The translations under genes and the position numbers were made by a program. The notes beneath the pieces were generated by a model. The model saw only the letters and a list, made by a program, of their open reading frames with translations. It made no database searches and was not told where the DNA came from. DNA of 32,000 bases from Candidatus Lokiarchaeum ossiferum. GTDB taxonomy: Archaea; Asgardarchaeota; Lokiarchaeia; Sigyniarchaeales; Promethearchaeaceae. The stretch is taken from contig CP104013.1 in NCBI GenBank assembly GCA_025839675.1, forward strand, positions 5,790,001 through 5,822,000, read 5' to 3'. Shown piece after piece: positions 3-21,988 of the stretch (the stretch's first letter is position 1; each line of letters opens with the position of its first letter).

Positions 3-3000
3 TCTCAATCTCCCGAAGATAAGTATTATGTGGAACTGGATTCAGCTATGCTGTTTGGTGAATATGAACAGCAAATGGAGACCTTTACCTTCACCTTTAC
101 TGTAAATGGCTATAGCCAAGCCTGGACCTATCGGTTGTATGTGGATAATGACAATCCCGAGATCACTTTTGGATTCGATCCTTCCGTTTCCGTGAGTAGC
201 GATTCGATTGAGACTTCTTTGGATGAAATACCCGTAGTCTCGCTTAGTCAACCCATAAATTTAATTCAAGATCAAACCCAGATCTCATTGGATATTTCCC
301 ACAATAATACCGCGGATTTAGCTTATCTCGAATATTATGGGCTTTTTTACCATCGGGAAAGTGATGCGGATGGATGGTTGGATTATAACGCCATTTCGTA
401 TGACCGTGGGGTTGATGGCTTTAATTGGATCCAAGATATTTCAAATGGTTTGCTCTTTGCCATTGATAAAATGATTGCCAATGGTATAACTTGGAGCACC
501 TTACCTTCGTTATCTGGAAGTGATTATCACTACCTTCAATATGTGACCGAGTGGAATGTGAATGGCCTTTCAAACACATATTTCAATGAAGAAATGACCT
601 CCGCTCAAACAGACTTTGCCTCAAACTTGAGCCTGTTACTTTCCTATTTAACTACCGATCAACTGAGTAGTGCCTATGATCTAATGTTAAGGACTATCAA
701 ACCGCATTTAACGGAGCTCGCAACCAATGAATACGATGTACCGTGGGAAACTCCCGAAAAAGTCGTGTTTGGAACCTATTTTTCGGATGATTTAGCAACA
801 TATACTCCAACAATTAATCTGGAAGGTTTTCCCGATGGGTATTTTCAGCTCGGAACAAGCATTACTGATCATGTCGGATTACGAGATGAAAGTGTATCGC
901 CTCTGTATTTCTTGGAAAACAATCTCCCCACGTTCCAAATTGTTTCTCCTGCGGATAACGAACAACTGGTAATTTTACCCGATCAATGTAATTATGTGAA
1001 TTTTTCGATGTATGTGCCTGACCGTGATATTCGCTCGATTGCCTTAACTAATATGGTCATGTTTGATGATCTGGTGACGGAAGATTTAACTTTTGATATG
1101 GGGCAAGATTTGCCCAATCATCGAGTCGACTTCGGATTCAATCTCTCCGAAGCCATATCCAATACAATTGTGAATACCTATGTACTCAACCCACAATGTG
1201 CATGGACCATCACTACTGAAGATTTTGCAGGACGGATCTATACGCAAACCCGCACGTTTACCTGTGTGCAAATTCCAGATCACATTGGTCCTCAATTTTT
1301 GAATTATACGGTTCCAGATGCGTCCGCCCTCTGGACCGAAGGATGTGATATTGTTTTAAATATTACTGATTTTGGCAATCCTGTATTTGATGTAAATATG
1401 ACTTATGTTGGGGATGATGTGGCTTCTGGAATCCGATACTTGGAAGTGTGGCTTTCAGAAATCCCTCAAAATCTAGATCCTAGGCAAATTTACTTCCCGA
1501 TTATGGACTTTGAAACCACGGGAGATAGTTCCATGCTGGATAATTTTCTTGGTTTTATCATTACCTCCGAATCTGATGGTACATATATCTTCAATCCCGC
1601 GAAAATGAACAAGTTTTGGGCGAAATATGACGGGGATGGGCAATATACTTTTATTGTACGGGCTTTTGATCAGAATTTTAATGCAGAACTTATCACCGTT
1701 GATTTAAATATTGTGCAACCTCGCTTAAACCTCCCAGCTAATACTCCGGTGCCAACCATCGGAAGTGATGAATGGTTAAACCTTACTTTATCCAATCTTG
1801 GAGATCAAGTGGTGAGTGTTGAAATGCTGCTTTATACAGACATTACGGCCAGTTTCTTAGCTCCATGGTCATTAAGCGACTATGAGGAAGCAACCGAGAA
1901 TTTAATTGATCATCCGACGGATCCCGATGCCCTTCCAGCCTGGAATTCTTTGCGAATCCATACAACCATTCCCTATCTTGATCTGCCTGATTTGAACAAG
2001 AATCTGCCTGCTGCGAAAGGATACAAAATGGATTCCACATGCAATCCCTCGACGTGGAGCAGCAATGTTTATAGCTATACCCGAGTACTAGCATATGAAC
2101 CCCTAACAATGGGGGAGATTCTCACGTTTTCAGCATGGATCTATGTCTCTGAAGATTTTAATGGAGATTGGGCACGAATATCATGTGAAGGTGTTATTTC
2201 TGGGACGTCCTATTATAATTTAGCGAAAAAAGGGACGTGGCAGAAGGTCGAATTAACAGTTACGGCCAGTTCTACAGGAGAGGGTCATGGTTTCTTCTAT
2301 TTCTCAAAAAATGGAATTACTGATTTTTCCACTTTAACGGGGTATGTCATTTATCTGGCCCCCCAAGTGGAAAAGAAGGCATATGCGACACCTTTTGCTG
2401 ATGGCTCACGACTACCCATGCGATCCCAGATCTTATATAATTCTACCTCTCAGACAGAATATCAGTTCTCCTTCGCAGGAATTACCGAAGAAACCTATTA
2501 TGTGAATTATCAAATCATCCAAACCGATGGATCTGTTATTTCCCGTCTACATCAAGTTTCGTATCCCGATCACGTTGTGGAAGAATTACAAATTCCCAAT
2601 CATCTCCTAACCTCAGACAATACATGGTATGATCCTTATGGACTCGTGATTGATAATCACTTTCCACATGATGCCAACTGCAACTTTACGGAAGGGGATC
2701 TATGGTCAGAGATGGAAACAGTAATGATCACGTGGTTAGGGGAGACTCCTACCACGACTTCACCATGCGAAGTCTATCTACGATTTAATGGGATGGAATA
2801 TCCCCTAGTGAATAAAAGTTATACGGTGGACTGGATCACCCGTTCGGCGATTTTTACTCTAGATACGTATGAACTGCCCGAAGGGAGCCAAATTGTCGAA
2901 GCAACGGTTGTGTTTAGTAATGGGTATCAAACCAGCGTATCTCGGGTCATTATTGTTGACAATACTGCTCCCGTATTTATTCAAGATGGTATTTATATTA

Positions 3001-6000
3001 ATGGTACATCCCAATATGCCTTGAACGATTGGGTCCAGTACAAAACAATTATGTATTGCAATAATGTCGTCGAGCTGGAGATTCACGCCCAAGATAGTGA
3101 ATCGAATATCACAGCCATCGATCTTTGGGTAGAACACCAAGGTAATCTAGTTGGCTCGCTTCTTTCTTACCCCTTCAATTCTCCTTCTGTAATGGAAGCA
3201 CTACTCTATGATACGACAAGTTTAGGGGATGGGGAAGTGTATGATCTTTGCATAAAGATCAGCTCCGCAGGAGGGAGTATTACTTCCGATACAATCCAAT
3301 TATTTATCGATCGATCCGCCCCCGTGGGTGAATTTCTTACTCCTGCCACCACCACCACTTTTGGAGGTGACACAATTACCCTAGATGTCCTAGCGACCTC
3401 AAATAGTCCAATCCAACAAGTAGCCTTTTATTTCCAAACAGGGGTGGGGGGATTTTCTACTACTGACTTTTTAGGGTATGCCACCTTGCAATATGATTGG
3501 ACCACAGATCAATACCTCTATCGGTTGGACTTCGCGGATGTCGTTCAGTATCAGGGCCAAACCAATTACTTCTGGTTAGAAATCACCGATGAAGCGGGTA
3601 ATATGGCTCAAATCCCCACTTCGACACCGTGTACGATCTTACCGCAATATATCTCCTTAACGGAGGTTGAAGCGGTCTATTATATGGATCGGGATGAGAA
3701 TGCGGTGCTAACTGGAAGCCTTGAAAATTTTTATGAAGATTATGCCAATGCGATTATCAATGTTACGTTGAATATTCAAAATGGAGGCATGTTTGTGCCC
3801 ATCGGATCGGATGTGATTACGATTGATTCGACCACCGGAAACTCTGTCAATATAGAGTGGGGTGGGAATCTGCCCTTAGAATTTACCGACCTCGAAAATC
3901 TCCGTATTCCTATATCTTATGTGAGTCTCGATGGAAGTATCACATCTTGTGCCATCGATACCACTAATATTGCTGTCTGCGGAAAGTTCAACGCGACAGA
4001 TTCCCATCAAGTTGCTTTTATTACCTGTGGAACGGATCGCAGGATTCATCTTTTCTCCCATGATCCAACCACAGTGTTTGAGTGGAGTCGCTTTGATGAT
4101 ATCGATACGTATGCAGACCTCCCCGCAAAACACGTGGAAGTGGTGGATTTTGATGGAGATGGATATGATGAATTACTCTTACTCACGGCCGATCGGTTGA
4201 TTGTGGCTTCCTTTAATCGCACAACCCAAGATTGGGAATATCGAGAATTTGAATTTTCCCAATGGGCCGCAGATTTCTCGCAACCGGTGGAAGGCGTTTC
4301 CATGGGAACGAATAGTACTCACCTCTTTTTGGGATCTAGTTCTCCTCTCTTTACCGATCGAATCCTCGTAATGGAATCCCTTCCAACGGGCGATTTTTCG
4401 CTGGAGCAAGTGATCTATGCTCCGGAAGGAGAATCGATCACGGCATTTTCTAGCCTTCCCCTTGGGGATTCGGAGGATCTAACGATAGTAACTCTCCACG
4501 GTATCTATTCCCATAAGGAGGATCACTGGACCGAAATCTTCACCAGTGAATATACCTTAGTGCCAAAACTAGAGGTGGGCAATTTAGATCTAGACTCTTC
4601 CAATGAACTCCTCTTTGGAGTCTATGGGTATCAAGGCATTGATGTCATTCAAGGCAACTGGAATCTGAATACACAGTCCTGGGAGTTCATCGCAGCTCAA
4701 GCGTATTCGGACATAGCTCAAATTTATGACCTCGCCATTGGTCATGTGAATATGGATAACCGAGGACGGGCCATTATCGCCACCGATGCAGGGGTGGACA
4801 TGATCGATGTGTTAGACGATCCAACAGTGACAGCGGTAGAAGATATTTCTACCAGTCAAGATATGGAAGGCTATTATACGCAAAATGGTCTCTATGAATA
4901 TACTGATCTCGGTGCTCTGGATGACACAACCATTACAGAAATACGTGGAGAATTATCCTATACCTCGATGGGAGGTACTCTGGAAAATATATATTCCCCC
5001 GATCGGGTGAAGCTGGATGATGGATTGCATTTAGAAAGTGGTTCGATTGCAGATATAAGGGCCATTGATAATGAAGTGCTCGAAATCAGGTCCGATCACC
5101 ATGATGAAACTTCCCAACTTGGGATCGAGTTCTATTTCGATGAATTGGATTTAAGTCAAGAAACCACCTATACGCTTCAATGGCAATTTGAGGATGGTGG
5201 TTCACTGGGCTGGTTGAAAATTAAAGAAATTAAAATTTATGACCTTTATGATGTGGAACGTGTTTCTATCACCGGCACATCAGGTTTTTGGGGTGATGAA
5301 GTAGCAGAGACGGGTCTCTATGATATTGCGAGTTCAATCGGCAAAATCGAAGTCCTCATTGACAATGGTAACTTTGCCATGCCGTACATTTTTGAAATTG
5401 ATCTCATCTCACTCACCCTTCCCGACTTGAAAATGAGTGGTCCCCAAGGATACACCTCGGAGCAATTATCAACTGACACATGGGAACTTGGATCAGAACT
5501 AACTCATTGGAAACTTGATGGAAATGCTGTGGATGCTTTGGGATCTTATTCTGGAACCGTTTTAGGGGCATCTCCAACGGTCGATAGATTTAATTGTCCC
5601 AATAGTGCCCTAAATTTTGATGGTGTGAATGATTATATTACTGTTCAAAATGTGGCGGGTACATGTATAAGCGATCCTTCGATTACGGGAGAAATAAGTT
5701 TATCGATGTGGGCTTATATTGAGGGAGGTCTCTATATGGTTTCAAGCGGGGGTCAAACGAGTAGTCGTGGGATTGCCATTTCTTACCAAAATGGCAACGA
5801 ATTCATCCTTCTTCATGATGGAAATCAACAATGGATAGTATATCCTGATTGGCCCTTGAATCAATGGATTCATATCGGATTCACATGGAATGGATTTACT
5901 TTGGATTACTATCAAAATGGAGTGTTAACGTTATCGGACACTACTCCAACGAGCGCTTCTTTTTCGGACCTTCACACTGAATTGACCTTAGGAGTACCCA

Positions 6001-15000: not shown

Positions 15001-18000
15001 TCAAGCTCTATGATGAAGTCCGAGTAGACGAATTTGGGACAATGCATAATGAAACCACGTTACTCCAACAACGCAAGCTCACCACTTTAGTTTATCCCGC
15101 CGTCTGGAATCAATCAAGTACTCGAACGGTTGTGGGTCCTCCGAGTGTCACCGAAGGAGGACGATTTACCATTGGAACTCCTGAAGCCCAAGTCTTGAAT
15201 TTAGCGATGGATGTCACCGATCCCGAAATGGCCCATACTGCCATTCTTGAGTATAATTTAGCGGCCAGTGATCGGGATCTTGTGATCACCCGCTGGTCAG
15301 AACGATTCTATGATCGAGGATATTCGGCGAGTGATCCCGCTTCGATCGATACAGTGCAAAAAGTATGGCCTGTGGAAAGCATATCCTATTATGATCAATC
15401 CACCATCTTAACCCATGATTGGATCACGAAAAAAGTAAGTGAGAATTATAATCCCGATATCCTTCGGGATGTCTCCAATTCGGAATTGCAATCGATTAAG
15501 ATTGACGCCAATGATGGACTGAATCCTGTGTGGAATCAAGAAGTCGAGATTCATTTTGATAGCCATTATGTCATAGCCAATCAAGTCGATACGGTGGCTT
15601 TAACCTATCGGTTCGGTCTTAAAAATTACTTTGCTTTAGGGGCCCTTGGATTTCCCGCGCGCGTGGATCTCCAAATCCAAAAAGCGGATGCATCATGGAG
15701 TACGATCGCTTCCATCGAGGATTTAAATGTCCCCTTTGAACAGGATATTGCTTGGGTGGACGGAGTGTTTACCATTTCTGAAACCGAACTGGCCACATTT
15801 ACGGAAATTGGAGGATCAATGCTTTTGGATCTCAACGATCTACGGTTTGTGTTTGACGGGTGTGGGGTACGGGGAGCAGAATTATTTATTGATCAGTTGG
15901 TCCTTACCTTGGATAATGATAAAACGCGCCTCTTTTGGGACGATGAACATATTCATGCGTACAGTGATCTGGCGGCCTTGACCCATAGTTCAGATCCGGT
16001 CGTGATCACTCAAAGTGATAATCCACAAGCCGGGCAATCGGCCAATGTGTATACGATAGTGGATAATCGCACCCAAATTCCCGAAGTAGTAGGCTATGGT
16101 GATACGGAACTATTGTTGATGAATGTGGGTAACTGGAAAAACACCTCTTGGTGGGGAGACTCTCATTATGCAGGAGCTGATGCATGGAATTCGTGGGAAT
16201 ATCTTGTGAATGAAATGGATATTTATTCGGTGGAGGGTTCCCTTGCCGAAACCGACCAACTCCACTTGGATATTACGCCCTTTTACACGGATCCGGTTAC
16301 CCGCACCCCCGAGTTTGCGTGGATGGAACTTCCTCTCTATGTATTTACCACCCAAGGGATTGACGAAATGACATTAACGTATTCATTCTCCAATGCGGCT
16401 GACGAAAGCATAACCTACAATATGACGGAATTAGTGGGTGAGAGTGGATTGTTCATGGAAACTCTCCGTCTTCAACTGCAAGGACGTTGTTTAACGGAAG
16501 TCACATGGGATTTCACTTTCCATTCTTGGGTGAGCGCAGCCGACATCTCCACAGTCGGGTTAGGGGGGATTGCCTTTTATACCGAAGCGTCTTTGGGCAA
16601 GTTAGTGTTAACAACGGATACTTTGACGCATACGCACGATTTACTCCCCACAGTCTTTACAGGGCCCACCTCCCCCTATGGGGAATATGTGAATTTGTCC
16701 TCCCTGGGTGTCTTTACCTCCTTGGATCGCATCCAGATCCAAAGTGCCCAAGGCGTCAGCGATGTCTTACACAATGGATATTATGGAAGTCCTCTCTATC
16801 TCAGTTCCTTTACGGTGGTTAGTTATAATACCACATCACTGGCCGATGTCGCCTATCATTATGCCTATAATTTTGATCCGGTGCAAAGGAATTTTGAATA
16901 TCGCATGGTCGATTGGATGGAAGCGACTCCCACTCCTGAGTCATGGGAAGGAAGCAGTATGACCACCGAAGAAATTCCGTGGTTACGTCATCAAAGCTGG
17001 GATCTCGATGGGGATGCTTCTTATGATCTCTATGTGGAAGAATTTGACGGCGAAGGGCTCGGGGAGTTCTCCAATAACAAGTTAGATAATTTTCGGGTGG
17101 ATTATACGGGCGATGGATACTATGATCTTCAAGTGACCATGGATACGACCTTGACCACTTCTCAAGTAACGACACCCACCCTTTATAATATGGAGACAAA
17201 TTTGATTGGTGAAGCCACCGGGCATTATTATGTCATGCAAAATGCCAAGGAATTCATCGAAATTTCTGAGGATACCGATGGCGATGGACGCTTTGATCTG
17301 AAATCCGAATTTTCCCTCACCGCTTCTACCATGGCCTTACCCGAATATCGAGAATATGTGATCCATAACCATCAACTCACTTCCTTTAGTGATGCCACGT
17401 GGCACAAACCGATTGCGGGGGTGGCCTATAGTGTCGATAGTGATGGGGATGGGGTGTTTGAAGAAAGTATATCCCGTACCGATCGCTGGGCGAACTCCGA
17501 ATCTATTTTGGACGAAGCCTATGAACATTGGATCTATGAATCCTATACCTATACCTATGAGGATTTTGTGGAACGGGATAACATGCTCAAGGAAAATCTT
17601 ACCTTTACCCTCTGTGGGCCCGATTATTTCAATCTCACCGAAGACGGGTTATTGCAATTTGATTCTGATGGCGAAGTGTTGTATGATCGTCCCAGTCTCA
17701 CGGCCGAAGTGATTCTGGAATATGATGTGCCTGTTCCTATTGATCCCCGGTATAATCGTACGGTGGATCGTTCTTCGTGGGAGATCGATCGGTACCCCGA
17801 ATTACTCTGCGATCCCCATGGGGTGCTTGCATGGTGGGATGGTGATCATGATGGCACTGCAGAAACCGCTTTTGTGTTTACGGAACAATCGTGGGCCGAG
17901 GATCAAATGGCAATTGCCATTTATTATAGTCGGGATGGATCGGAGCAGGTGCATATTAATAGTTTTGAGTATCAAGCCTCGGGTGATTCGCTCCTACCTT

Positions 18001-21000
18001 TGTACTGGCTGAGTGCGGCGTACGATTATGAAATTCTGACCAACATTGCGTGGGAAGATTCCAAGGATGCGTATTGGACACAAATGAAAGGCTTTATCGA
18101 TGGGCAAGGTAACAGCATGACGGCCTCTTACTATTTAGATCTGGTGCATTCAATGTCCTTGATGGGCACCTCCGCCCTTATGGGGGGTGGGTTCGGATTT
18201 ATTATGGCAGGGTATGCAGTCTACCAATATTGGACTCGTCCGTTGTTGGTCGACTTTCTTGCCGAACATCAATTATGGGGAATGCAAGAACAACCCCATG
18301 AATTTGGGCAAGAAGCGGATCGCTATGATTTCTGGGATGGGTTGGATGCGATGATCGAGGATTTCACCAATTTTGGGAATTTCCAAGATCCTCAATACTA
18401 TGTGCAATCCTTCCCAATAATTACATCCAATCCTTGGTGGGATGATACAGTGTGGCGAGAAGCGGCTGAACCGACCTTTGATACCAGTAATACAGTGGTG
18501 TCCTTCAAAGTGCCCGATATGCAAATCAGTGGGGATACGCACGAAGGCATCATTGCTTGGTGGCTCCATTGGTATGAAAACGACTGGGTGGAAAATGATC
18601 CTGTGATTCCCTATGCGAATGCGCCCCAATGGTTATGTGATTTTATCACCACCTACCTTCAATATGTGCAAACTTCTTCCGATATGGATCGACCTCCCTC
18701 GAGTTATGTGAAAACACTCTATCCTGATATCACTATTCCCCAAGCCGATTTCAATGGCGAATTGGGGCAGGGGCTCTATGCCAATGTGTGGCGAGATCTT
18801 GGGGAAGTTGAATATCAACTCCTAGAAGGCAATCAACGGGGAGTTATTGCCACCACCTTGACCACCCATCATCCCGTCTATACCGATGTGATTTTCTCCG
18901 TGGATGCTTCGGGGCGACCTCTCTTTACACCCGCTGCGACTGTGTCCCGCAATTTGAGTGATCCGATTGCTCGGACCCTCGATTATATGGAACTCGCCTA
19001 CTATGCCCAATATGCGGGTGCCTATGAAGACGCCCGTGCAAAGGATCCCACGATCATTGCGTCACAACTTGGATTACAGGTGGTGCAAGTCGTGGCCGGC
19101 GTTTTGGCTTCGAATTTGGCTGTGATGAGTTTAGATCCTGTTGGATTCTATACGAATTATGTGGTCCGGGAAGGGTTGCCTGGCATCTTGCTGGATTTAA
19201 GTCGGGAAGTGTTCGAAGAATTGGTCTTAGAAGAACTAGTCAGTTCTGCGGCCCGATCCGTGGGGATTTCTTTGGGATTGGCGAACTTGTTAGGGGAATC
19301 CTTCGGGAGTTTTGATGTCATTTCCAACATCTACAGTACAGTGGGATCTGTCGATTACAGTGATCTCTATACGGCCTTACAAACGACTACCCCGCATTCG
19401 ACCACCCAACACGCTTCTTTAAGCGAACATGTGGCAGTCTCGAGTTTTCAACACCTCTCACAGGTGAAACAAGTGGCCCAATTGAAGAGTCTCTTACAAG
19501 CTCGATCCAGTATCCATGCGCTGATCCAATTACGAACGAATGCGCGAATGATGGGAGCTTTACAGACCTTTATTAGTACCCACATGGGTTCCAATATTCA
19601 GTTGAAGCCATACCTTAGGAATCTCGAAACTATGCCAATTCTGAAGTTTACCAATCACCATTTGACCGAGGAAGCGTTCCGTTTGGAGGTTGAGGAGACT
19701 ATTTGGGAATATTCGATCGCTGGGAAGTCGGTGCAAGAATTTCTCTCGGATCCCGCTTTATTGGCCAAATGGGGGTTGACGGAATGTGGAAATGAGATGT
19801 TCTTCCAGACTGTTTTGAAAGATTTTGGATCTGTGCAATATAAAGCAGATGGTCTAGTGTATGAAGAAATCGATGGAGTATGGAGATCTCGAATGAAATA
19901 TCCTGATGAAACCTTGGGAAGTTTTCTCTCTCGAGTGGATGGTGTGGTGTTGATTGATCCTCCCCATCAGAGTAATTTAGATAAATTTATAGAAAAGGAA
20001 TCAAGTAAGGAGATTGGAGATTCTGCGGAGTTAGATCCCGAAATTGTTTTCAAGGCGTTAGTAGAATCTAAAGATCAAGAACTAACGAAATCCACTTTGG
20101 AAACAGCTACTTTCTTGATTAAGAAAAAGCAATCTTTGAAATTAGATACTGCTTTTAAAACACCTCAACAGCTAGCAAATTTGCGGACTTATAAACCAAA
20201 ATCAGATAAATCACTCTATCCTATGAAAGTCTTTAAAGAAACTCATGTTCCTACAGAAGGAGATTTTCTGCATCGGGGTGATTCTTCCTTAAAAGAAATG
20301 ATTCCAATTCAGATAGAATCGATTAATAGATTTAGGAAATACCTAAATTACATGAAAACTTCGATGTTCCGTACATTAGTTAAGCAGAAGCTAAATAACT
20401 ACGAGGCTCATTTGAATTCGCTATACTCAAAACTAGAAGTAATCGATTCAACTAATCCAACAATTGTCGATGACCATTTCCGAATATCCGAAGATCTTCT
20501 GAAGATCTTTAACACATATCTTGGATCCAACACCTATATGGTCCTTCCTGCATATGCACGTATGAAGATTTCTGGATCATTGAAAGATTTGTATAAATGT
20601 TATTGGCAAATCAATATTTTGAAGAAAGGAACTATGTTTTATGAAAATTGTCGAAAGCAAGGAAAAGGGTTTTCTTTGCTCATTGGACCAGTTTCGGGAT
20701 ATAATGAATATAACATTTGGGTAAACCCTACTTCAAACCCTTTAGAACGATATCTCTTCAAAATTACCCCAAGAGGGGGCCATCATGAAGCAGCAACGGT
20801 TCTTTCATTCATAAAAACGAAATCTTTGGGTATGCCGGAAATAATCTCTCGTTCTAGTTTTTCTCCTCAAGATTCAGTAATTGATTGTCAAACGGATGCA
20901 TTTTCAATGATCTTAGGAGACACTGAATTAAATCGTTTATTGAATCATTTGAATATTGAACTCATCAAATCTGATTCTTCAGGCTCTCTTAAACCTGATT

Positions 21001-21893
21001 TTTATGTACGTACTCAAGCGGGTGAAAATTTTATTGGAGATGCTTTAGATGCTAGTAATACCGAAGATTTGCTCAAATACTCGGTCTCCTTAGAAGGAAG
21101 TTTGTTAGGCGGAATGGCTGAATTTGGGATCTCAACTTCCACTGCGATGCAGATGGCCTTTTATCGAGATTTGAACATCATTGGAACCATCGTTCCTAAC
21201 ATTTTGCGTGAAAATTTGGAGATTTTAAATTATATCCATAAGTATGAGACTGGTAATCCGTCGCAATCCTATGAGCAAACTATTAAGGATTTGTTTAAAA
21301 ATGCCGAGTCTTGGATTCCCACTATCCTGCCCGAGTATGATTCGGAAGGGCGGTTTGAGGGATTGGATATAATGTCATCTGAGATGAAGCGTTTGAAAGC
21401 AATCGAAATACAGCAAGAATGGGGGGTGACTCTTGAAGGAATCGAAGGAGTTATCAAACCCTTCGAATATGAGTCACCAGATCTTTATTATGGGAATTTG
21501 AGGACAACAATTTCTGTTGTGAAAGATATGCGGCTTTTCTGGTTCATGGTACGCAATCCGAGTGCATCATACCAAAATATCATAGATTATTATGTCACAA
21601 TCGCAACTGACTTATATGCTGATGCTGATATCGATTCTTTCCATGGAGATACTTTTAAAGATTATTTACAAACATTATCCGATGGTCGAATAAATAATTT
21701 TCCAGCACAATTGGCTCAATTTCCTCAAATGGGAATTGTTCATTTATGTCTGGACCATTGGCTTAGTCAAGGCGGATTTAATCTCAAATTGAAAAATGAA
21801 AATGTTGATAAGATCAACGATATAATCAGGAAATTGAATGAAATTTTGATTGCAAATGGATACAATCTGCTTCCTTTCAAAGCTAAAAAGTAA
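3..21893 (+). CDS. Giant (>7,296 aa; 5' end cut by window edge) acidic multidomain cell-surface/adhesin-like protein with C-terminal membrane segment(s) and a long tail
   Basis: There is no stop codon for 21.86 kb. The frame is also open from nt 3: SQSPEDKYY precedes the GTG at nt 30 used by the ORF track, so the true start lies upstream of the window. All alternative-frame ORFs inside it are <=128 aa. The protein is D/E/T/S/Y-rich and K/R-poor with many N-x-S/T sequons. Extracellular domain types are listed as sub-features. Confidence 0.9.
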   Translation, partial: SQSPEDKYYVELDSAMLFGEYEQQMETFTFTFTVNGYSQAWTYRLYVDNDNPEITFGFDPSVSVSSDSIETSLDEIPVVSLSQPINLIQDQTQISLDISHNNTADLAYLEYYGLFYHRESDADGWLDYNAISYDRGVDGFNWIQDISNGLLFAIDKMIANGITWSTLPSLSGSDYHYLQYVTEWNVNGLSNTYFNEEMTSAQTDFASNLSLLLSYLTTDQLSSAYDLMLRTIKPHLTELATNEYDVPWETPEKVVFGTYFSDDLATYTPTINLEGFPDGYFQLGTSITDHVGLRDESVSPLYFLENNLPTFQIVSPADNEQLVILPDQCNYVNFSMYVPDRDIRSIALTNMVMFDDLVTEDLTFDMGQDLPNHRVDFGFNLSEAISNTIVNTYVLNPQCAWTITTEDFAGRIYTQTRTFTCVQIPDHIGPQFLNYTVPDASALWTEGCDIVLNITDFGNPVFDVNMTYVGDDVASGIRYLEVWLSEIPQNLDPRQIYFPIMDFETTGDSSMLDNFLGFIITSESDGTYIFNPAKMNKFWAKYDGDGQYTFIVRAFDQNFNAELITVDLNIVQPRLNLPANTPVPTIGSDEWLNLTLSNLGDQVVSVEMLLYTDITASFLAPWSLSDYEEATENLIDHPTDPDALPAWNSLRIHTTIPYLDLPDLNKNLPAAKGYKMDSTCNPSTWSSNVYSYTRVLAYEPLTMGEILTFSAWIYVSEDFNGDWARISCEGVISGTSYYNLAKKGTWQKVELTVTASSTGEGHGFFYFSKNGITDFSTLTGYVIYLAPQVEKKAYATPFADGSRLPMRSQILYNSTSQTEYQFSFAGITEETYYVNYQIIQTDGSVISRLHQVSYPDHVVEELQIPNHLLTSDNTWYDPYGLVIDNHFPHDANCNFTEGDLWSEMETVMITWLGETPTTTSPCEVYLRFNGMEYPLVNKSYTVDWITRSAIFTLDTYELPEGSQIVEATVVFSNGYQTSVSRVIIVDNTAPVFIQDGIYINGTSQYALNDWVQYKTIMYCNNVVELEIHAQDSESNITAIDLWVEHQGNLVGSLLSYPFNSPSVMEALLYDTTSLGDGEVYDLCIKISSAGGSITSDTIQLFIDRSAPVGEFLTPATTTTFGGDTITLDVLATSNSPIQQVAFYFQTGVGGFSTTDFLGYATLQYDWTTDQYLYRLDFADVVQYQGQTNYFWLEITDEAGNMAQIPTSTPCTILPQYISLTEVEAVYYMDRDENAVLTGSLENFYEDYANAIINVTLNIQNGGMFVPIGSDVITIDSTTGNSVNIEWGGNLPLEFTDLENLRIPISYVSLDGSITSCAIDTTNIAVCGKFNATDSHQVAFITCGTDRRIHLFSHDPTTVFEWSRFDDIDTYADLPAKHVEVVDFDGDGYDELLLLTADRLIVASFNRTTQDWEYREFEFSQWAADFSQPVEGVSMGTNSTHLFLGSSSPLFTDRILVMESLPTGDFSLEQVIYAPEGESITAFSSLPLGDSEDLTIVTLHGIYSHKEDHWTEIFTSEYTLVPKLEVGNLDLDSSNELLFGVYGYQGIDVIQGNWNLNTQSWEFIAAQAYSDIAQIYDLAIGHVNMDNRGRAIIATDAGVDMIDVLDDPTVTAVEDISTSQDMEGYYTQNGLYEYTDLGALDDTTITEIRGELSYTSMGGTLENIYSPDRVKLDDGLHLESGSIADIRAIDNEVLEIRSDHHDETSQLGIEFYFDELDLSQETTYTLQWQFEDGGSLGWLKIKEIKIYDLYDVERVSITGTSGFWGDEVAETGLYDIASSIGKIEVLIDNGNFAMPYIFEIDLISLTLPDLKMSGPQGYTSEQLSTDTWELGSELTHWKLDGNAVDALGSYSGTVLGASPTVDRFNCPNSALNFDGVNDYITVQNVAGTCISDPSITGEISLSMWAYIEGGLYMVSSGGQTSSRGIAISYQNGNEFILLHDGNQQWIVYPDWPLNQWIHIGFTWNGFTLDYYQNGVLTLSDTTPTSASFSDLHTELTLGVPNSVKTAYHFDGKLDDLRFYDTVLSRSEMQQLSQGPFVIEGVNSENPNPLISLATLTTSGDVTQIARILQPNTAGYSPAGDLQALTVNQVTSDTLGYDANGYITQSFFADTPVTTTSLLSRLGDYPNNALVQTGNSMYAIAGSTFDFYSALPATLHISRHGTPGYGYGSIMNYYIYYYSDNNLLRSVNVDCYSEGYGSGVAIFAFNVDLKEGYVNGEGCNKIGVGVKFLYTDYGTLSVKCIPNLENEADPSNYPIEWNNCYNKVPFEADITINRGELGDIEDVLNYRLTIPIEIDMYGRTFAGTITDLNYNPAVLSAQNILIHTSIDGGNTWNAYSGANIVQQSTLAYNIELSLTPSSLSIFFSPEGSVLMRVSFLLEFTHPSQFVYDGYALIPTLRIDASQIEAELLSRISSSLECDQTGFEILEIPIDRSPILENEFDIFHPPSNFDATYSTRVLLDLTCPDLIYTAYSAPLEGDIQVRSLESDSNTVRLDHFEGSTSATHTSGILYTTSGEEIVGSKSIILPSAGSYAKYDYNVEFTYEGTAECYFRPSTVPMDNTLYAIMTSDSSGYPGLMVYMYNGKIQAGHYTDVGNVGKFCGWTYSDPVLNENEIYHIAYSWKDGDGAYLYINGNLVGSNPDDGDPANFFLDCWGTSTHVGIGQCGYRSSVGAALGTYDEYRFSNLARTDFPTTIYTEKTYDALEALYNDDQVEKLPIRISVEDISSSAPTEASEITLALQYDEGDVIMNNNAYIDLDSETHPFPNGVIPEDIALTITTKSSNFASYLSSERTYRISYSFWSETEGVWHLLCALPASTLDFSLKAGSVPTTETTITYGETGHDQYYEQTFGVALPIAQCENAKYLQLEIDGEVDHFLWDTGNWYEYNAFDTADHGLTYNQWISDNNGKTHLQIHHPTNGWTNLESWNWTTYLDGRFALTYALIDGWGTFDQSLNDEYYQFAFRFIIDQGAYPQANHHMEVNIRKISGMIVHTRDPNDVESREKAYEMYDGRHLFSITLGDTTFDPSALDAVSISVDMGVIINITTVPGGVKLPILDEKLVWRQLAAEFFLESQITTAQGEHLLKNLFGSPTITAQVIDDDLIYTVSQTLTLYSRNQIAEFLHFEEGVGYSLRGRLVSHFSLLNNRLGSIRVSVQATDDFISAAKVVYERISEQVSPNQVHDLTLGDLDDDGDQDLLFDDGSAIIVQPNEATFALKLSAFNNDSLDPYLDQYFLGSMDLGAPHPNFYGQTQELPEFGTSMTLHVVDYSYDLTSIALYCDDVLVETQSVTQGSNYFSFTVDTLSPLIGEGNHVMKVIATDSQSQTGEANLMVIIDRSAPSTTLQMLGDWQDLEVSLRTNLTLDVVESNTLISTEMLFTSVTDVPICAFTFAQEDLKSISLLEDVILPSGFDHGAFKIRFWSVDQAGNSEIPTEYAFTISSTYDLTFYTDETYLEEETTLSRHEGEVLFGQVLDRFGEPLPEGFPLDLKFEGLNYIQTSIQGNFGHFSGQIQSSNLLTDDLRTDFALANNGGLEEELVTSDTVEFTLAGENRYFAVDGLRRFYYGSANPLTLIYDQVDLSDYSSLYSFEGIHVEVIIPSAYHDDMGTTYETIEIEFRELAHFENDTDIVTTYTVPFETLLAAVKTSNPTPWQDMMVSRIGIDIGFYNLVARNSLFNLSAIDQIRIIGHDNGIHPDFSLEDPSNSDQLLGCAGIYLLDHLNQATMFYETNPSGVESVTYALTAQCNMGVVGNTITTYAYPLTIQPKPFMLTVTSTVNTTMTFGDLYTLEGIEWDTGFNPTTTEIIDDFCLLQAIYEGDSYPTPIGTPMDLGIASEMTFLINALPGEYTDLHLNYSGNALYPSTLSGELLSDLTVTKKPTHIELANSVLSMERNSSSSLFGLVLTTDRYPLLPDTDVSVTQTLLREFAEGTRGDYYWGNYTFENVLLGLLNESGEYDWMEMAFLQEGEVFVFDVDLAEDGNLEGMTPGLYSMAVKFEGNALYDATVQPFLLQVNPSALDIEIREGFAQNWTAMANGYASYLQYSDEKVFSMKVSDAFDADPCAGYPLWYQVGFTPNSPNFPLMCVSDNYADTWGDYMEFQTSETPDILKFWQYIQAKDDRPIAYPYYDEAMDQIMFMAPFAYGMVTTDAEGLAEVVLDPQMTTEIAELYKAIFKVTLGSLDEINLYFRVFYDASFSPDQMKMPDLVSLGYTYPIEYFGKEALVYEGDDILPTASISNGFWTGTNYQDPYHCGSWGEGILTMLAEDTMIVAGYQEFNEPNFNLAAAVVEADLIAEGTYLPEVHGESNFIESTGLPTDNWMELGLEIWNQANSSQVLAYPWAEMVDDLGISTFTCNENTLGSAIDRLLPGFYTANYAYERGSSIYYNAPHAGSTSLLLKGVNSARLDSPTHHQTLSELIGPETVSTTSLTTAEGETILGEFDTNYPTLTGELSLDALNEIPDNYNYTDLITVDFLWNGWRVGGEYSYNLSEYTEAIPFEVPFKFQDGYPVNFSVEVAFDYNPEANLNWSAEMTAAGYEIWSEYYLSMAYNATLENCWANYAPISDYAIILTELSVKQSTLYDSGNEWDLMAELLTKYPQVSYDGYNLNQNPGAGWKYLNGSIQDDIPQVSLKIGEDNVEEYVSATIDQSAITISLDKDQISGWTPDHSEEYNVTLSFPELFSVERYQWNMSYDVDDPQFEKHSRFTQLTGMVLGENVNKSLRTAIYTNSTYDGTEATQDATYIGLQVGETMSLVVPDVYMPWRGELQWQALCPQLPWLDYTSLEWELVLTVHQSADPTNIHTLSWILNTSDFSKVDGGFWQDLSTFIPSAFYSCDVNLELNITLHSSGDVTAIYPLYLIHGYLVGQEDIVTISTVYPSALRARMFGSSFLYLYTLFGKDMGITATSNDDQGNTLENINDMYLEVLPYTGDAYGVQSITDILSVKDERRFLEYPSVSEANMDYWFTTASGTPNYATYQEFVAEDSLGQTMFAMRYNESQLDAIEDPRIYSGFVKLYDEVRVDEFGTMHNETTLLQQRKLTTLVYPAVWNQSSTRTVVGPPSVTEGGRFTIGTPEAQVLNLAMDVTDPEMAHTAILEYNLAASDRDLVITRWSERFYDRGYSASDPASIDTVQKVWPVESISYYDQSTILTHDWITKKVSENYNPDILRDVSNSELQSIKIDANDGLNPVWNQEVEIHFDSHYVIANQVDTVALTYRFGLKNYFALGALGFPARVDLQIQKADASWSTIASIEDLNVPFEQDIAWVDGVFTISETELATFTEIGGSMLLDLNDLRFVFDGCGVRGAELFIDQLVLTLDNDKTRLFWDDEHIHAYSDLAALTHSSDPVVITQSDNPQAGQSANVYTIVDNRTQIPEVVGYGDTELLLMNVGNWKNTSWWGDSHYAGADAWNSWEYLVNEMDIYSVEGSLAETDQLHLDITPFYTDPVTRTPEFAWMELPLYVFTTQGIDEMTLTYSFSNAADESITYNMTELVGESGLFMETLRLQLQGRCLTEVTWDFTFHSWVSAADISTVGLGGIAFYTEASLGKLVLTTDTLTHTHDLLPTVFTGPTSPYGEYVNLSSLGVFTSLDRIQIQSAQGVSDVLHNGYYGSPLYLSSFTVVSYNTTSLADVAYHYAYNFDPVQRNFEYRMVDWMEATPTPESWEGSSMTTEEIPWLRHQSWDLDGDASYDLYVEEFDGEGLGEFSNNKLDNFRVDYTGDGYYDLQVTMDTTLTTSQVTTPTLYNMETNLIGEATGHYYVMQNAKEFIEISEDTDGDGRFDLKSEFSLTASTMALPEYREYVIHNHQLTSFSDATWHKPIAGVAYSVDSDGDGVFEESISRTDRWANSESILDEAYEHWIYESYTYTYEDFVERDNMLKENLTFTLCGPDYFNLTEDGLLQFDSDGEVLYDRPSLTAEVILEYDVPVPIDPRYNRTVDRSSWEIDRYPELLCDPHGVLAWWDGDHDGTAETAFVFTEQSWAEDQMAIAIYYSRDGSEQVHINSFEYQASGDSLLPLYWLSAAYDYEILTNIAWEDSKDAYWTQMKGFIDGQGNSMTASYYLDLVHSMSLMGTSALMGGGFGFIMAGYAVYQYWTRPLLVDFLAEHQLWGMQEQPHEFGQEADRYDFWDGLDAMIEDFTNFGNFQDPQYYVQSFPIITSNPWWDDTVWREAAEPTFDTSNTVVSFKVPDMQISGDTHEGIIAWWLHWYENDWVENDPVIPYANAPQWLCDFITTYLQYVQTSSDMDRPPSSYVKTLYPDITIPQADFNGELGQGLYANVWRDLGEVEYQLLEGNQRGVIATTLTTHHPVYTDVIFSVDASGRPLFTPAATVSRNLSDPIARTLDYMELAYYAQYAGAYEDARAKDPTIIASQLGLQVVQVVAGVLASNLAVMSLDPVGFYTNYVVREGLPGILLDLSREVFEELVLEELVSSAARSVGISLGLANLLGESFGSFDVISNIYSTVGSVDYSDLYTALQTTTPHSTTQHASLSEHVAVSSFQHLSQVKQVAQLKSLLQARSSIHALIQLRTNARMMGALQTFISTHMGSNIQLKPYLRNLETMPILKFTNHHLTEEAFRLEVEETIWEYSIAGKSVQEFLSDPALLAKWGLTECGNEMFFQTVLKDFGSVQYKADGLVYEEIDGVWRSRMKYPDETLGSFLSRVDGVVLIDPPHQSNLDKFIEKESSKEIGDSAELDPEIVFKALVESKDQELTKSTLETATFLIKKKQSLKLDTAFKTPQQLANLRTYKPKSDKSLYPMKVFKETHVPTEGDFLHRGDSSLKEMIPIQIESINRFRKYLNYMKTSMFRTLVKQKLNNYEAHLNSLYSKLEVIDSTNPTIVDDHFRISEDLLKIFNTYLGSNTYMVLPAYARMKISGSLKDLYKCYWQINILKKGTMFYENCRKQGKGFSLLIGPVSGYNEYNIWVNPTSNPLERYLFKITPRGGHHEAATVLSFIKTKSLGMPEIISRSSFSPQDSVIDCQTDAFSMILGDTELNRLLNHLNIELIKSDSSGSLKPDFYVRTQAGENFIGDALDASNTEDLLKYSVSLEGSLLGGMAEFGISTSTAMQMAFYRDLNIIGTIVPNILRENLEILNYIHKYETGNPSQSYEQTIKDLFKNAESWIPTILPEYDSEGRFEGLDIMSSEMKRLKAIEIQQEWGVTLEGIEGVIKPFEYESPDLYYGNLRTTISVVKDMRLFWFMVRNPSASYQNIIDYYVTIATDLYADADIDSFHGDTFKDYLQTLSDGRINNFPAQLAQFPQMGIVHLCLDHWLSQGGFNLKLKNENVDKINDIIRKLNEILIANGYNLLPFKAKK
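2016..2411 (+). other. Domain in giant ORF: jelly-roll, galactose-binding-like/CBM_4_9-like module
   Basis: Segment KGYKMDSTCNPSTWSS...LTFSAWIYVSEDFNGDWARISCEG...GTWQKVELTVTASSTGEGHGFFYF...GYVIYLAPQVEKKAYATPFADGSR. The beta-strand pattern and the terminal 'Q-V-E-x-x-x-Y-A-T-P-F' resemble CBM/tail-fibre-type jelly rolls. Assignment is by eye only. Confidence 0.35.
2760..3640 (+). other. Domains in giant ORF: three tandem Ig-like modules
   Basis: Roughly 90-120-aa beta-rich units are delimited by VDNTAPV (2958-2972) and IDRSAPV (3309-3323). The third unit carries ITDEAGN (DEAGN at 3588-3602). D-x-[ST]-A-P boundaries and D-x-A-G-N are typical of prokaryotic Ig-like surface modules. Confidence 0.5.
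3940..4820 (+). other. Domain in giant ORF: FG-GAP/VCBS-type (integrin-alpha-like) beta-propeller
   Basis: Blade-like repeats of roughly 60 aa are present. They include HVEVVDFDGDGYDELLLL (DFDGDGYDE at 4146-4172), VGNLDLDSSNELLFG (4574-4618) and IGHVNMDNRGRAIIATD (4738-4790). This is the D-x-D/N-x-D-G-x-x-[DE]-hydrophobic signature of FG-GAP repeats. Confidence 0.55.
5502..6096 (+). other. Domain in giant ORF: LamG / Laminin_G_3 (concanavalin A-like lectin) domain 1
   Basis: THWKLDGNAVDALGSYSGTVLGASPT...NSALNFDGVNDYITV...ISLSMWAY...NQWIHIGFTWNGFTLDYYQNGVL...LTLGV...HFDGKLDDLRFYDTVLSRSEMQQL. The motifs occur in the canonical Laminin_G_3 order: W-x-[FL]-D-G entry, F-D-G-x-x-D-Y-[IV], W-x-H-[IV]-x-x-[TV], Y-x-[ND]-G, and G-x-[IL]-D-[DE]-[LV]-R-[IF]-Y-x-x-x-L-S-x-x-E. 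Confidence 0.8.
7464..8060 (+). other. Domain in giant ORF: LamG-like domain 2 (more divergent)
   Basis: VRLDHFEGSTSATHTSG...GTAECYFRPS...NEIYHIAYSWKDGDGAYLYINGNLVGS...HVGIG...ALGTYDEYRFSNLARTDF follows the same strand and motif order as domain 1, ending in the D-E-Y-R-F-S box. Confidence 0.6.
9531..10300 (+). other. Domains in giant ORF: isolated FG-GAP-type motif followed by two Ig-like modules
   Basis: LTLGDLDDDGDQDLLFDDGSAIIV lies at 9531-9602. It is followed by LHVVDYSYDLTSIALYCDDVLV...HVMKVIATDSQSQTGEANLMVIIDRSAPS (DRSAP at 9984-9998) and ...FKIRFWSVDQAGNSE (DQAGN at 10248-10262). Confidence 0.45.
11529..12038 (+). other. Domains in giant ORF: Ig-like repeat ends (Big_3_5-like 'Y-x-G-N-x-L-Y' strands)
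   Basis: LNYSGNALYPSTLSGELLSDLTVTKKPTHIEL lies at 11529-11624 and MAVKFEGNALYDATVQPFLLQVNPSALDIEI at 11946-12038. Both match the [YF]-x-G-[DN]-x-x-[YF]-x-x-[ST]...V-x-x-x-x-[ST/A]-x-[IL] terminal pattern of 'Ig-like domain repeat' proteins. Confidence 0.4.
17001..17879 (+). other. Domain in giant ORF: membrane-proximal cluster of five DxDGDG-type (FG-GAP / calcium-binding) repeats
   Basis: The five repeats are WDLDGDASYDLYV (from 17001), VDYTGDGYYDLQV (~17098), EDTDGDGRFDLKS (~17271), VDSDGDGVFEES (~17433) and WWDGDHDGTAETAFVF (17832-17879). They are spaced roughly 30-130 aa apart. Confidence 0.6.
18150..18233 (+). other. Predicted transmembrane segment 1 of giant ORF
   Basis: SMSLMGTSALMGGGFGFIMAGYAVYQYW contains a ~22-aa uncharged Gly/Ala/Met/Phe-rich core followed by W-T-R. 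It is the first clearly hydrophobic stretch after ~6,040 visible residues. Confidence 0.6.
19050..19133 (+). other. Possible second hydrophobic/membrane-associated segment of giant ORF
   Basis: TIIASQLGLQVVQVVAGVLASNLAVMSL, preceded by ARAKD. It is only moderately hydrophobic because it contains Q, N and S, so it may be a TM helix, a re-entrant segment or a buried helix. Confidence 0.35.
19950..21890 (+). other. Compositionally distinct C-terminal module of giant ORF (AT-rich, Lys-rich, no recognisable domain)
   Basis: My hand GC counts of single 60-nt lines are: 19021-19080 52%, 19741-19800 48%, 19861-19920 38%, 19981-20040 37%, 20101-20160 25%, 20581-20640 23%, 21361-21420 35%. The protein switches from D/T/G/P-rich to K/I/N/L-rich sequence (e.g. 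LIKKKQSLKLDTAFKTPQQLANLRTYKPKSDKSLYPMKVFKE). Confidence 0.6.
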
Positions 21894-21926
21894 TCTAAAT
21901 GATTTAGAAATCTAAGGCACCAAACA

Positions 21927-21948
21927 TTTTTTATCTCGAATTTTTTTT
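21927..21948 (+). terminator. Oligo-T tracts after the giant ORF (archaeal-type intrinsic termination signal)
   Basis: A T6 tract (21927-21932) and a T8 tract (21941-21948) lie 34-55 nt after the TAA at 21891-21893. Confidence 0.35.
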
Positions 21949-21979
21949 ATAATATTAAGAATTCCACCAGATTTTGGAG
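21944..21979 (+). promoter_or_regulatory. Putative TATA-like box plus Shine-Dalgarno-like GGAG for the LRR gene
   Basis: TTTATAATATT (~21946-21956) lies about 35-40 nt upstream of the ATG at 21989. GGAG at 21976-21979 leaves a 9-nt spacer before the ATG. Confidence 0.3.
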
Positions 21980-21988
21980 CAATAAATT

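Follow-up and report, generated by a model that had tools for sequence, protein, structure and literature searches.

A 9,702-residue surface protein of Candidatus Lokiarchaeum ossiferum is probably organized like a polymorphic toxin system

We analysed a 32,000-nucleotide window (genome positions 5790001–5822000) of the single-contig, 6,035,313-bp genome of Candidatus Lokiarchaeum ossiferum (G000), which has three small-subunit rRNA genes. Part of a giant gene opens the window and is followed, 95 nucleotides downstream on the same strand, by a gene encoding a leucine-rich repeat (LRR) protein of 609 amino acids, LRR609 (Table 1). The giant gene occupies one uninterrupted frame that ends in a stop codon at 21891–21893 and is open at the 5′ edge, as a preliminary description made from the window alone had reported; the longest open reading frames (ORFs) in the other frames within it encode 128, 126, 118, 111 and 107 amino acids, in agreement with the ceiling of 128 given there. 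Walking upstream of the window, we found the frame free of stops from genome position 5782632 to the stop codon at 5811891–5811893, a run of 9,753 codons. Counted from the first ATG (5782785, equal to L002:10785), 7,216 nucleotides upstream of the window, the protein has 9,702 amino acids, confirming that it exceeds the 7,296 residues visible in the window, and its gene is the longest ORF of the whole genome. We refer to the full protein as P and use P0001 for numbering in the 7,296-residue window translation. The description of the gene as among the largest in prokaryotes holds within the archaea but not beyond, as bacterial giant genes of Omnitrophota encode up to 85,804 amino acids (bioRxiv 10.1101/2023.11.21.568195). 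Similarly, the AT-rich background described there applies to the genome (33.6% GC) but not to the giant ORF itself, which has 40–47% GC and a GC content at third codon positions (GC3) of 0.42, above the 99th percentile of the other ORFs (0.39; genome median 0.27).

The giant ORF is genuine and non-repetitive at both the DNA and the protein level. Because the genome has just 33.6% GC, the 9,753 stop-free codons are not attributable to chance. Self-BLASTN of the ORF returned the identity match alone, self-BLASTP at E ≤ 10 gave no off-diagonal match and Tandem Repeats Finder (TRF) reported trivial microrepeats and nothing else; when 250-amino-acid fragments were compared with each other using phmmer, a single weak pair emerged (2008–2071 and 6131–6194, E = 1e-4). 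The apparent lack of repeats noted earlier by eye was therefore borne out by all four comparisons.

The same genome encodes two paralogues that are colinear with P, parA (752834–781642; 9,602 amino acids) and parB (5268740–5291533; 7,597 amino acids), and the closed genome of a different genus in the same family (G135) encodes a colinear relative of 10,103 amino acids. Identity of P to these three is 24–30% over nearly the full length, and 25–31% to parA and parB within aligned blocks that span most of P. P thus belongs to a three-member paralogous family, which the preliminary description had missed. GC3 differs widely among the three colinear giants of L. ossiferum (P, 0.42; parA, 0.35; parB, 0.17; genome median, 0.27). 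Giant ORFs sometimes turn out to be assembly chimaeras, and a decaying pseudogene might be read through by chance. The L. ossiferum Loki-B35 assembly is closed and was built from short and long reads (PMC9834061), and this hybrid assembly and the colinear homology to three other giants argue against a chimeric join. Together with the length of the stop-free frame in a genome of this composition, and with composition and glycosylation-site patterns that are specific to the individual domains, they leave an artefact with next to no likelihood.

The conserved core of the protein, scanned against 400 genomes from across the phylum, found matches only in 5 of the 13 that belong to the same family, with one weak match elsewhere in the order (G279); matches to the domain that precedes the C-terminal tail (the pre-tail domain), sought in 154 genomes of the order, were confined to that same Lokiarchaeal family. 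As many of the scanned genomes are fragmented, a missing match does not prove absence. A word-index homology search with the conserved core (residues 2765–5101) and a 1,200-amino-acid slice yielded zero matches, as did phmmer when the full-length protein was split into three pieces and compared with PDB sequences, and family-profile searches (A1, A2, A5) against PDB sequences gave nothing credible. Pfam results for parA, parB and G135 were nearly empty (a sub-threshold deaminase match, Big_7 and coiled-coil noise), and NCBIfam gave sub-threshold matches to P and none better. Three other very long ORFs of the genome (3666742–3681504, 4,920 amino acids; 712448–722710, 3,420; 3427311–3436766, 3,151) had no BLAST similarity to the family.

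The N-terminal part of P carries hydrophobic stretches at residues 178–196, 456–496, 597–615 and 1047–1065, and its first 500 residues are basic, with a net charge of +43. Because parA begins at about residue 574 of P and parB at about residue 1074, each with an N-terminal hydrophobic segment, the first ~575 residues appear to be an extension peculiar to P, basic and without N-x-S/T glycosylation sequons (L002 10785–12500). The segment M598-PFVSVLFLIACVPSITLS resembles a signal peptide and aligns with the start of parA, and P may start either at the ATG at 5782785 or near M598, before this segment. The preliminary description had looked to the upstream sequence for a start and a signal peptide; a first ATG and a signal-peptide-like segment are both there.

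Beyond the N-terminal part, residues ~1100–8450 form a strongly acidic stalk with 1–2% lysine. Conservation is even along the stalk, at ~25–33% identity, and variable islands lie at about residues 3000–3200, 4100–5200 and 7400–7800 of P, as well as at both ends. The two LamG modules and the Ig-like module that had been named from the sequence pass their Pfam thresholds as Laminin_G_3 and Big_7 (Table 1), and the DxDGDG repeats were recovered as D-x-[DN]-x-[DN]-G motifs, of which there are five; a cluster of three lies shortly before the C-terminal module. The proposed FG-GAP propeller shrank to two lone repeats below the Pfam cut-off (E = 0.002–0.009), and the proposed jelly-roll to a lone sub-threshold NCBIfam match. 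An AlphaFold2 (AF2) model of residues 5200–6399, built with nine homologues, was nearly all beta, at a mean predicted local distance difference test (pLDDT) score of 61. Foldseek, which had been suggested as a structural check, matched this 1,200-amino-acid slice to strings of Ig-, fibronectin type III- and macroglobulin-type sandwiches, including CD109, alpha-2-macroglobulin, C3, the MpIBP ice adhesin and a grappling-hook protein, with giant repeat adhesins among the top matches. E values were ~1e-8 and template-modelling (TM) scores only ~0.1, which is expected because the chains are flexible and multi-domain. The model portrays this slice of the stalk as strings of beta-sandwich domains like those of giant adhesins. 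The earlier characterization as a giant surface protein stands, in that P is giant, non-repetitive and mostly extracellular.

The C-terminal module of ~980 amino acids lacks sequons and consists of hydrophobic helices, the conserved pre-tail domain and a variable tail. AF2 predicts long helices at three glycine-rich hydrophobic stretches (residues 8455–8483, 8756–8782 and 8822–8843); its model of the C-terminal 1,200 amino acids had a mean pLDDT of 46, and the pre-tail domain alone was confident, at 73–90. With the last 817 residues as query, an exhaustive HMMER search against 1.8 billion representative proteins found ten relatives in all, eight of which match the pre-tail domain alone; P0004 matches the tail end alone, and P0002 has a second matched stretch whose position within the protein was not located. 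P and its closest relative, P0002 (contig L021), are 62% identical over 972 amino acids up to ‘...SRVDGVxxIDPP’ and unrelated beyond, and P0009 and P0011 are likewise 73% identical up to ‘LVDP’ and unrelated beyond. Twelve sequences extend to the junction, and in every one of them the motif [LIVMF][IV]DP ends the conserved part; what follows falls into at least eight mutually unrelated tail classes. The commonest of these, class I, has a conserved YGxKKD ... WWxN signature and no match to a known family. At P0001 residue 6602, ~50 codons before LIDPP, GC3 shifts from 0.48 to 0.31, a trace of the kind expected from recombination inside the conserved pre-tail domain. On metagenome contig L021 (10001–14677; ERZ26802894 NODE_477), P0002 is a 1,558-amino-acid ORF that begins at the equivalent of P residue ~8101, with unrelated opposite-strand genes upstream and a differing tail and an LRR gene downstream; it would be either a shortened copy or a large cassette.

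An LRR gene lies immediately downstream, on the same strand, of P, parA (in two copies), parB, L021, L056, L061 and L063, and G135 and L060 have a weakly matching one, which brings the total to about ten loci. Among family loci with room to check, an LRR gene follows everywhere except at L057 and L059, with a SUKH gene in its place at L062, and the whole genome holds only ~25 LRR_8-positive ORFs. Because none of seven examined LRR proteins has a hydrophobic segment, we read the partners as cytoplasmic. The spacer in front of LRR609 suggests that this gene may possess its own promoter (Table 1).

Tail ends also occur on their own, next to LRR genes. Between LRR_A1 and LRR_A2, the two LRR genes downstream of parA (53% identity), lies a 183-amino-acid ORF, mid_A, that is 69% identical to the last 170 residues of parA. 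The metagenome contig L022 has a 119-amino-acid ORF that is 61% identical to the last 118 residues of P, followed by an LRR609 orthologue (57%), and L064 has a remnant with an in-frame stop, 28% identical to the last ~155 residues of P, followed by an LRR609-like gene (34%). Tail and LRR partner therefore co-vary within the P type (61%/57% and 28%/34%) and the parA type (69%/53%). At L056–L059, ORFs of ~1,000 amino acids open with the pre-tail domain.

Two members of the family provide a known toxin domain. P0009, a pre-tail domain with a tail, matches the Toxin-deaminase family PF14424 at 48.7 bits (cut-off 29.6), and the next genes at its locus are a SUKH-family gene and another pre-tail cassette. 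The extreme C terminus of parB is homologous to the P0009 tail and scores 24–25 bits for PF14424. Both retain RxxDxExK ... CxxC, the signature of the BURPS668_1122 deaminase clade, in which RxxDxExK lies in helix 2 and CxxC in helix 3 and for which SUKH is a listed immunity partner (PMC3239186); Imm-LRR is likewise a named immunity class among polymorphic toxin systems (PMC3482391). PF14424 does not match the tail of P, and the signature is limited to parB and P0009. The order of pre-tail domain with Toxin-deaminase, SUKH gene and second pre-tail cassette is laid out on L062 (1356–3834; ERZ4220937 NODE_14102), where the two pre-tail domains are 80% identical; in its layout, L062 is a textbook polymorphic-toxin cassette array built with the pre-toxin domain of the P family.

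Table 1. Features of the giant gene and its LRR partner in the window. Coordinates are window positions.
Feature	Coordinates	Strand	Basis
Window part of the gene for the 9,702-residue P, 7,296 codons and stop	3–21893	+	Frame analysis
Window part of the acidic, lysine-poor, sequon-bearing stalk, predicted extracellular	3–18146	+	Composition, sequons, AF2
Phage head spike fibre/jelly-roll-like match NF048003	1884–2396	+	Sub-threshold, 28.8 bits (cut-off 36)
Big_7 Ig-like domain (P0001 1107–1170)	3321–3512	+	33.9 bits (cut-off 24.1)
Single FG-GAP-like repeat with VVDFDGDGYDELLLL	4032–4178	+	Sub-threshold
Laminin_G_3 (LamG) domain 1 (P0001 1875–2026)	5625–6080	+	66.5 bits
Laminin_G_3 (LamG) domain 2 (P0001 2536–2684)	7608–8054	+	36 bits
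Modelled stalk slice, nearly all beta	8382–11981	+	AF2, Foldseek
Three D-x-D-G-D-G calcium-site-like motifs (17271, 17436, 17838), just before the hydrophobic region	17271–17855	+	Motif scan
Glycine-rich hydrophobic stretch 1 (P 8455–8483)	18147–18233	+	Matching positions hydrophobic in parA and parB
Hydrophobic helices 2 and 3 (P 8756–8782, 8822–8843); onset of sequon-free module	19050–19313	+	Hydropathy, sequons
Conserved pre-tail (‘pre-toxin’) alpha/beta domain (P ~8886–9060)	19440–19964	+	Alignment, AF2
GC3 change point (0.48 to 0.31), putative recombination breakpoint	19806–19808	+	GC3 analysis
LIDPP, the family-wide [LIVMF][IV]DP boundary between conserved body and variable tail	19950–19964	+	Alignment
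Variable tail, 642 amino acids, lysine-rich, zero N-x-S/T	19965–21890	+	No known-domain match
P-type C-terminal domain, ~155 amino acids, predicted effector; part kept in orphan cassettes L022 and L064	21423–21890	+	
Spacer with T-runs, then TATA-like TTTTTTTATAATATT ~45 nucleotides 5′ of the next ATG	21894–21988	+	Read by eye
LRR609, 609-amino-acid LRR protein, predicted cognate immunity or partner gene	21989–23818	+	Domain, linkage

Archaeal N-glycosylation takes place on the outer face of the membrane. We compared the number of N-x-S/T sequons along the family with expectations from shuffling or composition. In P the first sequon is at residue 624 and the last at 8723, with none across the final 979 residues. 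Residues 620–1040 hold 10 (5.1 expected) and the stalk (1100–8450) 77 (66 expected), whereas the tail (9061–9702) holds 0 (5.3 expected, P = 0.002). Thirteen tails of all classes together hold 2 against 51.7 expected (Poisson 5e-20), and pre-tail segments from the second hydrophobic stretch onwards 5 against 29.9. Seven downstream ORFs (six LRR partners and mid_A) are at expectation (19 observed, ~19 expected), and for genome ORFs of 500–1,200 amino acids the ratio of observed to expected is 1.16, with 2.7% lacking any sequon. This depletion suggests that the C-terminal ~1,000 amino acids are exported and selected to remain unglycosylated, which fits a cargo that has to cross a target membrane and does not fit a cytoplasmic tail. 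The ~2.7% of genome ORFs in that size range that are sequon-free, with 5–6 sequons expected, are a possible route to other exported but unglycosylated proteins.

Hydropathy and lysine content had initially led us to a cytoplasmic tail with an adaptor, an idea that was demoted by the sequons, the orphan cassettes and the deaminase and SUKH genes. In its full form, it makes P an envelope or adhesive protein that is anchored at both ends, with a lysine-rich tail in the cytoplasm and the LRR protein as an adaptor for signalling or the cytoskeleton, and no toxin. The three C-terminal hydrophobic segments and their long predicted helices would suit a second anchor, the composition and GC3 of the tail are like those of ordinary cytoplasmic genes, the LRR partners have neither signal nor transmembrane segments, and L. 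ossiferum lacks a surface layer (S-layer) and displays complex surface proteins (PMC9834061). Such an architecture leaves unexplained the near-total loss of sequons in the tails while LRR partners stay at expectation, the non-homologous tails at a conserved junction, the orphan cassettes of tail end and LRR gene, and the deaminase and SUKH genes, and we regard it as unlikely.

Conflict between bacteria is waged to a large extent with polymorphic toxin systems. The arrangement of the P family resembles theirs (CdiA/CdiI, Rhs, WapA; PMC3482391) in its long stalk, pre-toxin boundary motif and variable C terminus, in an immediately downstream gene of the LRR or SUKH immunity classes that co-varies with the tail (immunity being predicted), in its orphan or stand-alone cassettes and in the BURPS668_1122 deaminase and SUKH of family members. 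It differs in that TPS/FHA, RHS/YD, PAAR, LXG, HINT and protease domains were undetected by Pfam, that the stalk is non-repetitive, the tails unusually long and the pre-toxin domain and most tails new, and that the host, an Asgard archaeon, is bounded by a single membrane; L. ossiferum has no outer membrane (PMC9834061). Neither CdiA features (TPS domain, FHA repeats, VENN motif, CdiB) nor the RHS/YD repeats of Rhs proteins and teneurins gave a Pfam match in P, parA, parB or G135, and the ‘DP’ that the P-family junction has in common with the DPxGL aspartyl autoprotease motif of Rhs is an analogy only. A 2012 survey by Zhang, de Souza, Anantharaman, Iyer and Aravind found polymorphic toxin systems nearly absent in archaea (PMC3482391). 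In the literature searched, no paper carried both ‘Asgard’ and ‘polymorphic toxin’ in its title or abstract; a 2019 archaeal survey may list the family.

Comparison with other giant proteins further places the family. Like MpIBP, the 1.5-MDa ice-binding adhesin of Marinomonas (PDB 4p99, 5irb), P is very large, extracellular and acidic, with beta-sandwich strings and calcium-site-like motifs; in MpIBP-type adhesins near-identical units recur in tandem dozens of times and the secretion signal is of type I, whereas P has no repeats and carries N-terminal anchors. Membership in the repeat adhesins (Bap/SiiE/MpIBP) was ruled out by the absence of repeats in the BLASTN, BLASTP, TRF and phmmer comparisons. 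P probably works like a polymorphic toxin, but it falls outside the CdiA, Rhs and repeat-adhesin families, whose defining domains it lacks. Omnitrophota giants (10.1101/2023.11.21.568195) likewise combine a very large size and mostly absent annotation with membrane association and a largely extracellular location, and structure prediction is required to reveal their domains; at 30,000–85,000 amino acids, they have many transmembrane regions, SecA-like domains and a link to predation, none of which was found in P. Closer to home are the archaeal ‘huge proteins’ with Laminin_G_3, of which 12 were counted in Lokiarchaeota and whose function was stated to be not understood (PMC11573180), and the many unrelated giant genes catalogued across Asgard archaea (PMC8813620, Extended Data Fig. 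7). P resembles the former in being archaeal, longer than 5,000 amino acids and having Laminin_G_3 as its sole strong Pfam domain; the catalogues of sizes and domains in these two papers describe no tail polymorphism, LRR linkage or cassettes.

In VARTIG of Thermococcales (PMC8416519), another large surface protein of archaea, the C-terminal part is hypervariable and the genes downstream vary as well; its authors liken it to polymorphic toxin systems. What varies in VARTIG is an Ig domain, and known toxin domains are missing, whereas the P family has the deaminase and the SUKH and LRR partners; we found no sequence relationship between the two. VARTIG, for which such a role has been proposed, is a precedent for reading P as a device for kin recognition and not as a weapon, in which the variable C terminus and the LRR protein would serve as an allorecognition tag, comparable also to teneurins, which are toxin-derived and non-lethal. 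The same polymorphism and cassettes would be expected, most tails have no recognizable toxin fold, and L. ossiferum engages in cell–cell contact with its partners (PMC9834061). The relatives, however, have a deaminase with intact catalytic motifs together with SUKH, which is a killing module, and a cytoplasmic partner gene suits neutralization more than recognition at the surface. Recognition without killing overlaps with the toxin model, and we hold it to be improbable.

Genes for a 1,023-amino-acid NACHT NTPase (L002 6091–9162, + strand; genome 5778091–5781162) and, further upstream, an NYN-domain protein (L002 728–1885) precede the giant gene, which is therefore set among conflict-type genes. 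An 898-amino-acid protein with a TSP3_bac repeat is also encoded further upstream (L002 3246–5942). Just downstream of the LRR gene, window positions 23871–26354 (+ strand) encode an 827-amino-acid protein with SIR2_2 and many tetratricopeptide (TPR) repeats (GC3 0.18) that looks like a defence-type NADase/TPR protein. On the minus strand follow a gene for a 467-amino-acid beta-lactamase-family serine hydrolase (29051–30454) and one for a NosD/right-handed beta-helix protein with Big_13 (30923–31999), which runs past the end of the window.

With NACHT, SIR2–TPR and NYN neighbours and a GC3 far above the genome norm, the giant gene might have been carried in by a mobile element or belong to a defence island, with a function bound to that element; Asgard archaea have been noted to bear giant genes on mobile elements (PMC8813620), among them those of the Heimdallarchaeum ‘aloposon’. 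Aloposon giants (Otus/Ephialtes) are tandem genes that adjoin a tRNA integration site, and a ParA-like gene set lies upstream. The P locus is without these: the window has no tRNA gene, and the scanned neighbours include neither ParA nor an integrase nor a pair of giants in tandem. We rejected an aloposon, as the locus has a single giant gene and different neighbours and as, among the 400 genomes of the phylum, homologues occur in one Lokiarchaeal family, apart from the weak match to G279 of the same order. The gene contexts of the three paralogues also differ. We consider cargo of this kind very improbable.

Taken together, P is probably organized like a polymorphic toxin system, a device for contact-dependent antagonism or discrimination. 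The label ‘adhesin’ covers the stalk alone and not the likely function, and the preliminary description overlooked the organization of the C terminus: the last ~1,000 amino acids and the LRR gene are arranged like a polymorphic toxin with its immunity gene. In the model that we propose, hydrophobic segments in the first ~1,100 residues would insert P into the single membrane of the producer and anchor it there, and the next ~7,400 residues, made up of divergent, non-repeated domains of the beta-sandwich, LamG and Ig-like types, would project as a glycosylated stalk from a surface free of an S-layer. The last ~980 residues would be an exported, glycosylation-free cargo module at the distal end, whose glycine-rich hydrophobic helices might allow entry into the target membrane. 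The pre-toxin domain would end at [LIVMF][IV]DP, with the D-P boundary as a possible processing site, and the effector would be the last ~155 residues of the variable tail. The cytoplasmic LRR protein would bind and neutralize the effector, protecting the producer and its kin, and new tails would be acquired by recombination in the conserved pre-toxin domain, with stand-alone and orphan cassettes as sources. The comparisons show the architecture, the tail polymorphism, the gene linkage, the orphan cassettes, the deaminase and SUKH of relatives, the GC3 break and the sequon depletion; tail toxicity, neutralization by the LRR protein, the route of export, D-P cleavage and the identity of the target are the elements of this model that we infer. 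We see about even chances that Lokiarchaeaceae, to which the cultured Asgard archaea belong, deploy an undescribed class of contact-dependent toxin delivery, in which a non-repetitive, ~7,600–10,100-amino-acid glycoprotein stalk, anchored at its N terminus, carries a glycosylation-free translocation-plus-toxin module that is neutralized by cytoplasmic LRR proteins and exchanged by recombination at the new [LIVMF][IV]DP pre-toxin domain.

Several observations weigh against this assignment. Most tails have 600–1,000 amino acids, far above the typical length of a toxin domain; comparisons with Pfam, NCBIfam, PDB sequences and Foldseek gave no match to the P tail, and Foldseek results for the C-terminal 1,200-amino-acid model were meaningless (E > 0.3). 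An odd number of membrane-spanning stretches would leave the lysine-rich tail in the cytoplasm, beside the LRR protein. Secretion, processing-protease and HINT domains were not found by Pfam or in neighbouring genes; for delivery, we see the N-terminal hydrophobic anchors and signal-like segments, and no dedicated secretion domain or adjacent gene. The contigs with deaminase and SUKH are metagenomic, of taxonomy not known, and match P through the pre-toxin domain alone (~30%), and the parB score for PF14424 lies under its cut-off. Kin and paralogues do not count as independent observations, and the toxicity of the P tail is itself a prediction.

If the assignment is true, this would be the first polymorphic toxin system characterized in Asgard archaea. 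Polymorphic toxins predicted in archaea had not been characterized experimentally according to a 2021 paper (PMC8416519), and a contact weapon of this kind would be barely known in archaea. The longest gene of the genome would thereby gain a function, as would the LamG huge proteins, and the toxin field would gain candidate new parts: a pre-toxin domain, several toxin domains and LRR proteins as the dominant immunity type. Sequon avoidance is a possible sequence signature of exported cargo that needs to stay unglycosylated, and a ~7,400-residue stalk that is non-repeated yet colinearly conserved is an unusual structural problem in itself. L. ossiferum is among the very few cultivable Asgard archaea, so that toxicity, immunity, location and strain competition are testable. 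Cryo-electron tomography has shown ‘complex surface densities’ on the unusual surface without an S-layer (PMC9834061); these may be the P giants, which may mediate kin discrimination or antagonism in the cell contacts that are central to syntrophy and to models of eukaryogenesis.

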